The translations under genes and the position numbers were made by a program. A stretch of 8,704 nt of DNA from a virus. Its lineage: Duplodnaviria; Heunggongvirae; Uroviricota; Caudoviricetes. This document shows, in pieces, positions 6,436 through 8,704 of the stretch. How positions within the stretch are numbered: the stretch's first letter is position 1; each line of letters begins with the position of its first letter. The stretch is taken from positions 1-8,704 of IMG/VR virus record IMGVR_UViG_2713896905_000005; one strand, written 5' to 3'. The notes under the pieces were generated by a model, which worked only from the letters and a program-made list of their open reading frames with translations, was not told the origin of the DNA and did not search any database.

Positions 6436-6531
6436 TCAAATAAGTGGTTTGCTGCCTAATTTCATTTTCTGGCGACCAACACAAGTCACACCCATTTCAC
6501 TGCGTGGCTTGCGGTAGTAAATTAGGTTTGT
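6436..6531 (-). pseudogene. Remnant of an N antiterminator 3' end (…IYYRKPRSEMGVTCVGRQKMKLGSKPLI*), without the 5' part
   Basis: Minus-strand frame between the tL1-like terminator and orf28 encodes a peptide very like the lambda N C-terminus as recalled (…GITCSGRQKIKGKSIPLI) and the intact N here (…IYYKDSNPLGNKIHAVQKIKLYSKLP). The frame is closed by TGA at 6532-6534, so no N-terminal part or start is present. Confidence 0.5.
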
Positions 6532-6536
6532 TCAGA

Positions 6537-6561
6537 CAATAAAAAACCCACCGAAGTGGGC
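6537..6561 (-). terminator. Rho-independent terminator (tL1-like), minus strand
   Basis: Hairpin CCCAC-CGAA-GTGGG (6547-6560) immediately after the ORF stop at 6561-6563, followed on the minus strand by UUUUUUAUUG (6546-6537). Confidence 0.65.
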
Positions 6562-6899
6562 TATGACCATTTTTTATTTGGATTTCGTTGGTGAGCGTGA
6601 TTAACAACTCTGTGCATTACATCCTCATATTTTTCATCTTCAATTTTTTCGACATCGCGAGGAAATGGTGTTGCTAATGCTTTGTCAACTTTGTCCATTG
6701 GGTCTTCATTAATCTTATATTCAGGGCCATCATCTATAGCATTAAATCCAGGTGTTACACCGTTTTTTAATGCATATGCTATCCTTTTTTCCCATCTCGC
6801 TATTCTCCTCCTGTCTCGAGATGTAAGACCTCTATCAGATACTTTTCTGTTTTGTCCGCGGTCAGGATTAACATAAATAGTCTTTTTCACCATAAGCAT
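6561..6899 (-). CDS. Hypothetical protein, about 112 aa, basic N-terminal half (RDRRRIARWEKR) and acidic C-terminal half, located between N and the tL1-like terminator
   Basis: Open frame begins 2 nt after the N stop. The track start is TTG at 6905; first ATG is at 6899 (MLMVKK…), second at 6893. No strong SD, so likely coupled to N translation. Stop abuts the terminator hairpin. Confidence 0.55.
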   Translation of the reverse strand: MLMVKKTIYVNPDRGQNRKVSDRGLTSRDRRRIARWEKRIAYALKNGVTPGFNAIDDGPEYKINEDPMDKVDKALATPFPRDVEKIEDEKYEDVMHRVVNHAHQRNPNKKWS

Positions 6900-6901
6900 A
6901 C

Positions 6902-7207
6902 TCAATAAGCACCGTACGGTAGTTTACTGTACAATTTTATTTTTTGGACTGCATGTATTTTGTTTCCTAATGGGTTTGAATCTTTGTAATAAATACTTCT
7001 ATTTTTTCGAACGACTTCTTCTTTCTTCTTGCAGCAAAGGCATCCTAGCGATGCTGCTTTGTCTGCTCTGACGCAACCAGAGAGCTTTAGCGCAATTTTT
7101 CGCGCCAGTGCTTCATTACTGCGTCGCTCGGCAATAAGTTCTGCTCTGCGAGCTTTGTAGCGGCTTTTTGCCGTACCTTTGGATTCTTTCCAGACAATGG
7201 TTACCAT
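6902..7207 (-). CDS. N: N-type transcription antiterminator, 101 aa, with a phage-21-type arginine-rich motif
   Basis: ATG at 7207 with AAGGAG about 8 nt upstream. N-terminus MVTIVWKESKGTAKSRYKARRAELIAERR contains the phi21 N ARM peptide as recalled. Located just downstream of nutL and PL. The track's 10-codon extension (ATG 7237) has no SD. Confidence 0.8.
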   Translation of the reverse strand: MVTIVWKESKGTAKSRYKARRAELIAERRSNEALARKIALKLSGCVRADKAASLGCLCCKKKEEVVRKNRSIYYKDSNPLGNKIHAVQKIKLYSKLPYGAY

Positions 7208-7317
7208 GATGGTCTCCTTTAAGTGGCTTTGGCGCATGACGCGTCGAGGTGCTTATCTTCTCGATCGCTGTCTTGCAGCTGCAATTCGCGCCATCCCCAA
7301 AACCACTCAAGTTCTGG

Positions 7318-7358
7318 TCTCAACGGTTAGGTTGAGAGTCCGTCGATGTTAAAGAGCC
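7318..7358 (-). promoter_or_regulatory. nutL: boxA (GGCTCTTTAACA) plus boxB hairpin (UCUCAAC-CUAACC-GUUGAGA)
   Basis: Minus strand reads GGCTCTTTAACA (7358-7347), a 9-nt spacer, then a perfect 7-bp stem with a 6-nt loop (7337-7318). Sits between the PL candidate and N. Confidence 0.6.
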
Positions 7359-7403
7359 TGCCAATCTGTTCCGTTTGGCTTCCAGCGTCCTGCTGATGGC
7401 TTA

Positions 7404-7457
7404 AATTTAAGACTTCTTAATTTATTGGTCAAGTGCATTTTTGAAGAAAACTTAATT
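7404..7457 (-). promoter_or_regulatory. PL promoter candidate with OL operators of P22 type
   Basis: Minus strand: -35 TTGACC (7432-7427), 17-bp spacer, -10 TAAATT (7409-7404). Two 18-bp sites fit the P22 operator pattern ANTNAAG-N4-CTTNANT: ATTTAAGACTTCTTAATT (7405-7422) and, with one mismatch, TTTGAAGAAAACTTAATT (7440-7457). Confidence 0.5.
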
Positions 7458-7501
7458 TTATGGGCGTGAATTTAGTTTGTCTTTGATTTTTAACGGGAAA
7501 T

Positions 7502-7521
7502 AAAAAAGGGGCGAAAGCCCC
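7502..7521 (-). terminator. Rho-independent terminator directly after the repressor gene, minus strand
   Basis: GGGGC-GAAA-GCCCC hairpin (7508-7521) abutting the cI stop (7522-7524), followed on the minus strand by UUUUUUA (7507-7501). Confidence 0.6.
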
Positions 7522-8172
7522 TTAAGGAAGGTTTGCTAGCTTGGCATCAACGACAACGCCAATGATTTTACAGTTCCCATTGATTTCAATCATTGGGTAT
7601 TGTGGATTGAGTGGTTTCAGGAATTTTCTACCGGCATCAATAACTAACTTTTTGAATGTCGCCTCGTTTTCTCCTTCAAGTTTGGCGACTACCAACTTTC
7701 CATTACGTGGTTCGACTTCTGGGTCGACGAGAATAATCATCCCCTCAGGAATACTCAGTCCTGCCGGGGCAGTCATTGAATCGCCTTTAACGTCGAGCCA
7801 AAAAGAGTCTTCAGAACAATCTACCGTTGTGTCGTACCAGTTATCTATTGCACGCCTATGATATGGCTCTACAGCTTCCATCCAACATCCTGCGCTTACC
7901 CAACTAATTAGAGGATACGAACCTCTTGGATCATGCCTGCTGTGATAGGCAATGTTTGAAAGACTATCCTCTCCTTTCAACAGGTAATCAGGGGAGCACT
8001 GCAAAGCCTTGGCTAAGGCCAATAGGTTTTCGCCATTGGGCTCAGTTTCAGATCGCTCCCATTGGGAAATAGCAACATTAGACACGCCAACCATCTTGCC
8101 AAGGGCAGCCTGCCTAATCTTGAGTTCTTTTCTGCGAGCGCGAATACGCTCACCCATCAGTTGTGTATTCAT
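7522..8172 (-). CDS. cI: Prophage repressor, P22 c2 type, 216 aa (N-terminal HTH domain, C-terminal LexA-like self-cleavage domain)
   Basis: Near-identical over its length to the P22 c2 repressor as recalled (MNTQLMGERIRARRK…QAALGKMVGVSNVAISQWERSE… and …GDSM…KLANLP). Divergent from cro across an operator region. Confidence 0.93.
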   Translation of the reverse strand: MNTQLMGERIRARRKELKIRQAALGKMVGVSNVAISQWERSETEPNGENLLALAKALQCSPDYLLKGEDSLSNIAYHSRHDPRGSYPLISWVSAGCWMEAVEPYHRRAIDNWYDTTVDCSEDSFWLDVKGDSMTAPAGLSIPEGMIILVDPEVEPRNGKLVVAKLEGENEATFKKLVIDAGRKFLKPLNPQYPMIEINGNCKIIGVVVDAKLANLP

Positions 8173-8238
8173 AGTTAAGACATCTTAAATAAACTTGACT
8201 TAAGATTCCTTTGGTGGATAATTTAAGTGTTCTTTAAT
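8173..8238. promoter_or_regulatory. OR operator region with PR (rightward) and presumably PRM (leftward)
   Basis: Three sites fitting ANTNAAG-N4-CTTNANT: AGTTAAGACATCTTAAAT (8173-8190), ACTTAAGATTCCTTTGGT (8198-8215, imperfect right half), ATTTAAGTGTTCTTTAAT (8221-8238). PR: -35 TTGACT (8195-8200), 17-bp spacer, -10 ATAATT (8218-8223), upstream of cro. PRM hexamers were not individually located. Confidence 0.7.
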
Positions 8239-8252
8239 TTCGGAGCGAGTCT

Positions 8253-8438
8253 ATGTACAAAAAAGATGTTATTGACCACTTCGGAACCCAGCGTGCTGTT
8301 GCTAAAGCACTAGGCATTAGCGATGCAGCAGTCTCTCAGTGGAAAGAAGTTATCCCAGAGAAAGACGCCTATCGATTGGAAATCGTTACAGCTGGCGCCC
8401 TGAAGTATCAAGAAAGTGCTTACCGCCAAGCGGCATAA
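8253..8438 (+). CDS. cro: Cro repressor, P22 type, 61 aa
   Basis: ATG at 8253 with GGAG 7-8 nt upstream. Sequence MYKKDVIDHFGTQRAVAKALGISDAAVSQWKE… matches P22 Cro as recalled; divergent from cI. Confidence 0.9.
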   Translation: MYKKDVIDHFGTQRAVAKALGISDAAVSQWKEVIPEKDAYRLEIVTAGALKYQESAYRQAA

Positions 8439-8445
8439 GCAAATT

Positions 8446-8487
8446 GCTCTTTAACAGTTCTGGCCTTTCACCTCTAACCGGGTGAGC
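8446..8487 (+). promoter_or_regulatory. nutR: boxA (TGCTCTTTAACA) plus boxB-like hairpin with a CUAACC loop
   Basis: GCTCTTTAACA (8447-8457) is identical to the nutL boxA core. Ten nt downstream a stem (8468-8474 with 8481-8487, including G-U pairs) encloses loop CUAACC (8475-8480), identical to the nutL boxB loop. Lies between cro and the cII-like gene. Confidence 0.55.
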
Positions 8488-8553
8488 AAACATCAGCGGC
8501 AAATCCATTGGGTGTGCCGCTATAACTCAATATCAATATAGGAAAATTAACAA

Positions 8554-8704
8554 ATGGCACAAGCAAGCTACAGCAAGCCAACACAGCGAGAAATTGATCG
8601 CGCAGAAACAGATTTACTCATCAACCTGTCAACGCTTACACAGCGCGGTCTGGCAAAGATGATTGGCTGTCATGAATCGAAGATAAGCAGAACGGACTGG
8701 AGAT
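8554..8704 (+). CDS. cII/c1-like transcriptional activator, N-terminal 50 codons (partial, continues beyond the window)
   Basis: ATG at 8554 downstream of cro and nutR. HTH-like segment …LSTLTQRGLAKMIGCHESKISRTDW resembles the lambda CII DNA-binding region (…TEKTAEAVGVDKSQISRWKRDW, recalled). Confidence 0.65.
   Translation, partial: MAQASYSKPTQREIDRAETDLLINLSTLTQRGLAKMIGCHESKISRTDWR

Follow-up and report, generated by a model that had tools for sequence, protein, structure and literature searches.

A stranded N gene end downstream of nun as the probable scar of a moron in an imm21 lambdoid prophage

Why should a lambdoid phage with a complete N gene carry, behind a further reading frame and a terminator, the 3′ end of a second N? 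The question is raised by an 8,704-nucleotide stretch of a Caudoviricetes record (IMGVR_UViG_2713896905_000005), here called the window; coordinates refer to this stretch, and all features lie on its minus strand unless stated otherwise. Translation of 6436–6531 gives TNLIYYRKPRSEMGVTCVGRQKMKLGSKPLI*, with the stop codon at 6436–6438, the last sense codon at 6439–6441 and the first sense codon at 6529–6531. The longer translation of 6433–6600 reads ...KMVIAHFGGFFIV*TNLIYYRKPRSEMGVTCVGRQKMKLGSKPLI*G and confirms an in-frame TGA at 6532–6534, directly upstream of the peptide and beside the terminator (6537–6562), where an earlier note on this DNA had seen the frame cut. The same note had taken the peptide for the remnant of an N 3′ end, to be checked by alignment against the N genes of lambda, phage 21 and related prophages, and the similarity found in that alignment is significant. 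In BLASTP the 31-residue peptide is identical to phage 21 N at 27 of 30 positions (E 2e-19) and to lambda N at 16 of 27 (E 2e-8), whereas the C-terminus of the intact N agrees with lambda N at 9 of 29 (E 0.057), so that the remnant does lie closer to the lambda N C-terminus than the complete gene does, as had been claimed. On these values the resemblance to N is far beyond chance, and at the DNA level the piece is about 96–97% identical to the phage 21 N 3′ end.

The relic, referred to below as the stub (6436–6531), corresponds to the last 31 or so codons and the stop of a phage-21-type N. It covers only N codons 69–99 and has no start codon, ribosome-binding site, arginine-rich boxB-binding motif or NusA-binding middle region; it thus reads as a fragment of an N gene and not as a gene. 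Its nearest relative is phage 21 N, or, put more precisely, a 3′ block common to many N alleles, and not lambda N specifically. The stub stop overlaps the Shine-Dalgarno sequence GAGGTGA of the orf28 homologue that follows (6341–6427; phrog_16060, E 7e-19), exactly as the N stop does in phage 21, and beyond orf28 lies the restriction alleviation gene ral (6157–6357), 97% identical to ral of both lambda and phage 21.

The decisive reference proved to be phage 21 (OL657228; N gene at 33641–33940). The window is 98.7% identical to it, ungapped, over 6985–8704 (N, nutL, pL, operators, repressor and cro) and 97% identical over the 409 nt of 6125–6532 (ral, orf28 and the N end), where the homology stops at 6532. 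These two BLAST matches overlap by 21 nt in phage 21, while 452 bp of the window (6533–6984) have no phage 21 counterpart. Mismatches to phage 21 number 16 in the 73 positions of 6989–7061 and one (at 7276) throughout 7062–7400; within the stub they cluster on the junction side, at 6513–6528. The GC content falls to 37% in 6533–6984, from 49% in the N 5′ part; that of the stub is 43%. The phi21-type pL/boxA-L/nutL leader (7318–7432) comprises a promoter-like site at 7404–7432, boxA at 7350–7357 and a boxB stem-loop at 7318–7337, with coordinates carried over from the annotated phage 21 record through the 98.7% alignment and with a promoter scan also used. The LexA-type repressor gene (7522–8172) is followed by a terminator, and cro lies on the opposite strand. 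When phage 21, lambda imm21 and the DE3 region are considered together, the match of 98.7–100% to phage 21 extends over the window's N 5′ part, nutL, pL, cI and cro, and the window is an imm21 early region of a lambdoid prophage.

The left junction, between the nun cassette described below and the resident N 3′ end, is placed at 6529–6536 (about 6532/6533) by the end of phage 21 homology, inside the interval of 6520–6537 proposed earlier. Its sequence, TTTTTTATTGTCTGAAC followed directly by AAACC..., is common to all loci that carry nun together with the relic. The density of mismatches to phage 21 changes at 7061/7062, and there we place a right junction, a probable homologous crossover inside N; it had gone unseen in the first reading of the DNA. 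Because of this mismatch pattern and of the point at which homology ends, the foreign, AT-rich DNA is limited to 6533–7061, a segment of 529 bp inside N. Since both match phage 21, the 5′ two-thirds of the intact N and the stub are the two halves of one phi21-type N. In phage 21 the gene is uninterrupted, whereas in the window the foreign DNA stands between codon 48/49 and codon 69. The segment supplies a diverged last third of N, the annotated nun promoter, nun and an intrinsic terminator.

The extra reading frame at 6561–6893 had been reported as a 112-residue ORF; the frame is real, it has 110 codons, and it can be given an identity. Its PHROG match is to 'Nun-like transcription termination factor' (phrog_5632, E 2.2e-69), and the 110-residue product, a homologue of HK022 Nun, differs from it at one residue. 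The nucleotide sequence of 6544–7019 shows 96.8% identity to HK022 and spans the terminator stem, nun with its annotated promoter, and 39 N-like codons ahead of the gene. Neither the arginine-rich motif (ARM) of Nun, RDRRRIARWEKR, nor its arrest tail at the C-terminus, ...NHAHQRNPNKKWS, is disrupted, and the arrest contacts in RNA polymerase are made by H98, K106, K107 and W108 of Nun (PMC5386594). Homologous frames are annotated as Nun in mEp235, mEpX1 and O276. By homology, then, the frame is nun, the transcription-arrest and exclusion gene of the HK022 type. Pfam gave no match for nun and only a sub-threshold N_peptide match for N, and PHROGs identified both.

The putative nun promoter (6926–6954) consists of a –35 hexamer ATGCAG at 6949–6954 and a –10 hexamer TACAGT at 6926–6931 separated by a 17-nt spacer, its coordinates having been transferred from the O276 annotation (MH547045) via the BLAST offset. 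HK022 has the same two hexamers, and in the window the promoter falls inside the last codons of the intact N; a consensus promoter scan of the window did not pick up this weak promoter. The nun terminator at 6537–6562, with AGCCCACTTCGGTGGGTT+TTTTATTG at 6545–6562, has a 7-bp GC-rich stem, a UUCG loop and a U-tract, and a related terminator follows nun in HK022 and HK75. The HK022 nun gene has reportedly been described with a promoter and a terminator. Read-through or frameshifting from nun into the stub was considered and rejected, as the nun frame meets TAA 11 codons past its stop and the stub lies in a different frame.

The intact N (6902–7207; 101 codons; phrog_271, E 1.2e-29) is a hybrid, with the phage 21 ARM GTAKSRYKARRAELIAERR and a C-terminus derived from the cassette. 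In the cassette-derived last third (6902–7061), 6985–7061 is about 79% identical to phage 21 N and 6902–6984 encodes the diverged C-terminus KDSNPLGNKIHAVQKIKLYSKLPYGAY; BLASTP against phage 21 N shows the whole third, ...KKKEEVVRKNRSIYYKDSNPLGNKIHAVQKIKLYSKLPYGAY, to be homologous to the standard end but diverged from it. Among the phages of the collection, only nun carriers have this alternative N 3′ end, as would be expected if the nun promoter lies within it. The hybrid N probably works, because it is the sole annotated N gene in the immunity regions fetched for the isolated phages mEp235 and mEpX1 and because Kapi1 matches the N-nun-stub stretch at 97.7%.

These features recall the morons of lambdoid phages (Juhala et al. 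2000, as summarised in PMC3594210), which are added units with a promoter and a terminator, of deviant GC content and absent from a close relative. The segment is absent from phage 21, whose flanks are 97–99.9% identical; it has its own intrinsic terminator; and its base composition deviates from that of its neighbours. The likeness extends to expression from the prophage, which is predicted here, and to a gene fragment left at a novel joint. The segment does not lie between genes, however: it is lodged within an essential regulator, N, for which it provides a new 3′ end, and its promoter is embedded in the codons of that end. We would therefore class the segment as a moron that, unlike most, also brings a replacement end for the gene it interrupts, the promoter resting on the O276 annotation. 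The stub, in turn, is in our judgement probably a non-coding scar, some 96 nt of the standard (phage 21 / lambda-type) N end that were stranded before orf28-ral when the nun moron joined.

The arrangement is not peculiar to the window. The order N-nun-terminator-stub recurs at 91–99% identity in Lambdavirus PDP110P1, mEp235, mEpX1, Kapi1, PA28 and many Stx1a phages, all with the same hybrid N, nun, terminator, junction and stub, so that the window is no different in kind; 3′ of the stub, the window has orf28-ral, whereas mEp235 and mEpX1 have other genes. Among complete E. coli genomes, 194 of 5426 (about 3.6%) contain at least 80% of 6340–7260. The stub is unannotated in the annotation tables of mEp235, mEpX1, PA28 and E. 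coli BR1220; PGAP labels both nun and N 'hypothetical' in BR1220 (RefSeq), and in PA28 nun is miscalled as a 45-residue fragment. Scanning IMG/VR with the nun 3′ end returned 102 loci, a redundant sample chosen by our own search patterns. The stub is present in about 70 related loci, and every locus with a terminator of the window type carries it behind one junction, TTTTTTATTG(T/G)CTGAAC(A/T)AACC, a single joint shared by 50 IMG/VR and reference loci. Because all of these loci have the same junction, it points to one origin of the nun/stub joint.

The N type beside nun could be read across 71 nun-bearing loci: 59 have the phi21 ARM, one another ARM and nine putL, two are too short, and none has an N with the lambda or P22 ARM. 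Nun is specific for lambda nut RNA (PMC5386594, PMC4496710), and the absence of lambda-ARM N beside nun fits this specificity, since Nun would arrest the transcription of any carrier that itself had lambda nut sites. In HK022, HK75 and O276, nun occurs without the stub and putL replaces the N 5′ part. HK022 has no N gene; there putL abuts the 39 N-like codons, which are an untranslated relic, whereas in the window the same codons complete an N that probably works. Downstream of nun, HK022 has IS903 or other DNA and no stub, where the window has a second relic. Two further loci (L018 and L054) combine putL, nun and the downstream stub, and so hold two N relics and no N.

A second IMG/VR scan, with 23 nt of the stub as query, showed how widely its sequence is used. 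The block of about 90 nt closes the coding sequence of intact N genes that between them have four ARMs, those of lambda, phi21 and P22 and a fourth, NARNRRRARRQAQRE. It also occurs stranded behind other inserts: behind an N with the P22 ARM and an 88-residue ORF (L145), behind a 147-residue ORF with an HK022-like terminator (L152) and in a lambda-like arrangement (L143 and L199). The DNA found between a complete N and the stranded block thus includes nun, the lambda sieB region, the 88- and 147-residue ORFs and others. Where N has a P22-type C-terminus (...YRKSKQLTAR*), the stub is shorter, about 50 nt, and the allele terminates at a TGA within the GTGACTTGT of this stub. Lambda itself retains a vestige of the block directly before orf28, with a complete N and the sieB region to its right; the vestige reads ...CTTTACTACCGCAA joined to TCCACTATTTAAGGTGATATATG, also written ...GGCACAATCTTTACTACCGCAA joined to TCCACTATTTAAGGTGATATATG, and shows the L199-type junction; 61 nt within it have been deleted between the repeats GCAAGCCAC and GCAAACCAC. 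Lambda differs from the window in its junction, in the inserted DNA and in those 61 nt lost from the remnant. The clustering of independent junctions at one point of N is not put forward as evidence for a hotspot: those of the terminator type (nun, L145 and L152) could be of common descent, and only two long-stub junctions would then be clearly independent.

The frame of the stub is open to its stop in all of the roughly 70 copies, and its distal 69 nt are nearly invariant, with a pi of 0.0125 against 0.12 (about tenfold higher) in the 23 nt next to the junction. Comparison of the window with the PA28 lineage gives identities of 98.8% for the stub, 93.5% for nun and 86.9% for the alternative N 3′ end (Fisher p 0.013). 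Such values are what one might expect if the stub still had a function, be it as a cis-acting RNA or DNA element for orf28-ral or through a small peptide such as MGVTCVGRQKMKLGSKPLI, the N tail that contacts RNAP. We nevertheless think this very unlikely. The stub has no Shine-Dalgarno sequence and no conserved start, its sole internal ATG being ACG in the PA28/Stx1a lineage; most copies have an in-frame stop upstream of it, and it is out of frame with nun. An Rfam scan of the whole window gave no match, and the stub RNA folds no better than its shuffles (z –1.27), so that the searches for a start and Shine-Dalgarno sequence, for a fold and in Rfam gave no sign of function for the stub itself. 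It also appears dispensable, being absent from HK022 and HK75 and mostly deleted in lambda, where the 61 nt are missing. Only its last 10 nt visibly matter: they make up the ribosome-binding site of orf28, an arrangement also seen in phage 21. The ratio of non-synonymous to synonymous polymorphism, 17:9 in the stub and 20:14 in intact N ends (p 0.79), does not set the two apart, their sequences being too similar and exchanged by recombination. Exchange with intact N genes explains the uniformity equally well. Two 3′ variants of the stub, ...QKMKLGSKPLI* and ...QKQRGKSIPAYYD*, switch at different points, and the latter also ends an intact N (L136). Because of these visible crossovers, of the variant shared with L136 and of the clustering of mismatches at 6513–6528, we read the uniformity as repeated replacement by recombination with intact N genes, though purifying selection may also have produced it. 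The crossovers inside the stub suggest that it serves as a homology arm.

How the stub came to lie where it does could be told in other ways. According to the earlier note, the resident N had lost its 5′ part in a single step to a foreign allele that comprised the whole intact N together with nun and the terminator. Part of this stands: the DNA right of the junction does contain an additional ORF, a terminator and another N 3′ allele, to which the N 3′ third (6902–7061) truly belongs, and a single illegitimate crossover is the simplest origin of the left junction. The N 5′ portion is not foreign, however, as 7062–7400 departs from phage 21 at one base, the immunity region up to 8704 is 98.7% and the stub with ral 97% phage 21, and the sharp change at 7061/7062 marks a second junction; these observations contradict replacement of the whole gene, and the N 5′ part and the stub therefore belong to one allele. 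One-step replacement is a good model for the ancient event that created the left junction and an improbable one for the N of this genome. Only slightly better placed, and still unlikely, is the reverse direction, in which N-nun-stub is ancestral and phage 21 N arose by deletion of the cassette between two N 3′ ends. What distinguishes phage 21 from the window is indeed only the segment; few loci of the IMG/VR sample combine an intact phi21-ARM N with the standard end (one, against 34 with nun); and loss of the cassette through recombination surely occurs too. Against this, N alleles with four ARMs, the lambda type included, have the standard 3′ block in one piece, and phage 21 N is collinear with the stub up to the junction. 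Deletion becomes less parsimonious with an alternative end found only in nun carriers, and the two ends are too diverged to register as repeats, so that recombination between them would be rare and would yield chimeric ends. The codons NxIYY that flank the inserted segment on both sides might finally recall the target-site duplication of a transposable element; yet no terminal inverted repeats, exact direct repeat or transposase were found for ends at 6533, 6984 or 7061, and the NxIYY stretches stem not from a duplication but from two N alleles, in which these codons are homologous and have diverged; this leaves a transposon with next to no credibility.

On the reading of the stub as a scar of the nun moron, the order of events would be as follows, inferred as it is from the comparison of genomes. 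An old illegitimate crossover would have joined the terminator end of nun to about codon 69 of a resident N before orf28-ral. The cassette would later have spread among lambdoid phages by homologous recombination, with the N middle as its right arm and the stub as its left. For the window, one crossover would fall at 7061/7062 and the other between 6463 and 6513; the rest of the phage is nearly identical to phage 21. It is possible, if rather doubtful, that this reflects something more general, namely that the last 90 or so nt of N before orf28-ral are a standing landing pad and left homology arm, that cassettes hop between heteroimmune lambdoid phages by homologous recombination, and that the promoter-bearing N codons of the nun cassette have a dual use. 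What may allow such hopping is the near identity of the block among many N alleles.

In a lysogen pL would be repressed, and nun would be transcribed from its own promoter up to the terminator at 6537–6562; because its transcript would end there, the stub and ral should be silent. Nun would then arrest the RNA polymerase of superinfecting phages with lambda nut sites. The resident phi21-type N/nut pair would not be a target; Nun is said to spare phi21 nut sites. During lytic growth, N-modified polymerase from pL would pass the terminator and the stub into orf28-ral, and the stub would add only the orf28 ribosome-binding site at its very end.

A gene fragment left by a moron at a mosaic joint is of a well-known kind, and the N-nun arrangement is already in GenBank, partly annotated. 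In the full-text literature covered by our search, outside which Oberto et al. 1989 and Juhala et al. 2000 lie, the stub, the co-occurrence of N and nun, the lambda vestige and the promoter inside N are not described, and an earlier description is possible. The locus is an ordinary recombination scar of lambdoid phages and reveals no new mechanism. What it offers is a view, at the level of base pairs, of how a prophage defence gene, nun, may have been fitted into the essential gene N without breaking it, the cassette bringing a replacement N end and leaving the old one behind. This would explain why nun travels with the phi21-type N and nut and, in our sample, never with those of the lambda type. 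It also corrects annotation, both of nun and the hybrid N that are called 'hypothetical' in BR1220 and of the nun fragment in PA28, and a stranded N end may serve as a simple marker for cassette insertions at this hotspot.

The HK022-type phages, in which putL replaces the 5' part of N, are without an N gene, although 39 N-like codons (…EVVRKNRSIYCKDSNPLGNKIHAVQKIKLYSKLPYGAY) are retained between putL and nun in HK022 and HK75, and it is within these codons that the annotated nun promoter is located. Two loci, L018 and L054, carry both an upstream N relic and the downstream stub, i.e. the last codons of a phage-21-type N (lying before orf28-ral in the window), and so have two N remnants and no N. 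A vestige of the shared N 3' block, the end of about 90 nt common to many N alleles, is also seen in lambda (NC_001416) at ~34358–34400, immediately 5' of orf28. An internal deletion between two repeats, GCAAGCCAC and GCAAACCAC, has removed 61 nt from this vestige, and between the vestige and lambda N lies the sieB region. Among the IMG/VR loci retrieved with 23 nt of the stub, those N alleles whose C-terminus is of the P22 type (...AAGYRKSKQLTAR*; L117, L176 and ~25 others) have as their stop the TGA inside GTGACTTGT of the shared block, and a stub of ~50 nt of the lambda/phi21-type end, in a different frame, therefore follows them.

Intact N with the arginine-rich motif (ARM) of phi21 and the standard end of the shared block is rare among the IMG/VR loci of both scans (one locus, plus phage 21 itself), and the same ARM joined to the nun cassette, the foreign segment bringing an alternative N end, nun and its terminator, is common (at least 34 loci), in a sample that is biased by the search patterns used (nun 3' end and 23 nt of the stub). 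In PA28 (locus L008, NC_041935, 1501–2333) nun is a 45-aa fragment according to RefSeq, but the full 110-codon ORF is intact. Here, and in the Stx1a phages matching the window, which are in the same state, a 1-nt deletion close to the 3' end of N alters its last residues and makes N run into nun; the stem of the nun terminator is degraded and the TGA 5' of the stub is lost. In E. coli BR1220 (locus L221, NZ_CP093068, 1722–2368) nun and the hybrid N, which ends within the cassette, are both labeled "hypothetical protein" by PGAP, and no Pfam model reaches threshold for either.

The window has another insertion at 5633–6124, where 492 bp stand in place of 9 bp relative to phage 21 and lambda alike. 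Just downstream of the ral terminator (6147–6168) it holds two small minus-strand ORFs of 62 aa (phrog_10407) and 98 aa (phrog_1273), to neither of which PHROG assigns a function.

Outside the window, the scan with the nun 3' end returned a 289-aa protein (phrog_12139, annotated by PHROG as of unknown function) that terminates in the Nun arrest tail ...NPVNHAHQRNPNKKWS in IMG/VR UViG_2728369607_000002 and ~30 other loci. Its gene is homologous to nun only over the last 13 codons before the stop and is followed by the HK022-type nun terminator; in the named locus it is directly preceded by a lambda-ARM N gene. The 289-aa protein represents either a further mosaic joint within nun or a distinct protein with an RNA-polymerase-jamming tail taken over from Nun.
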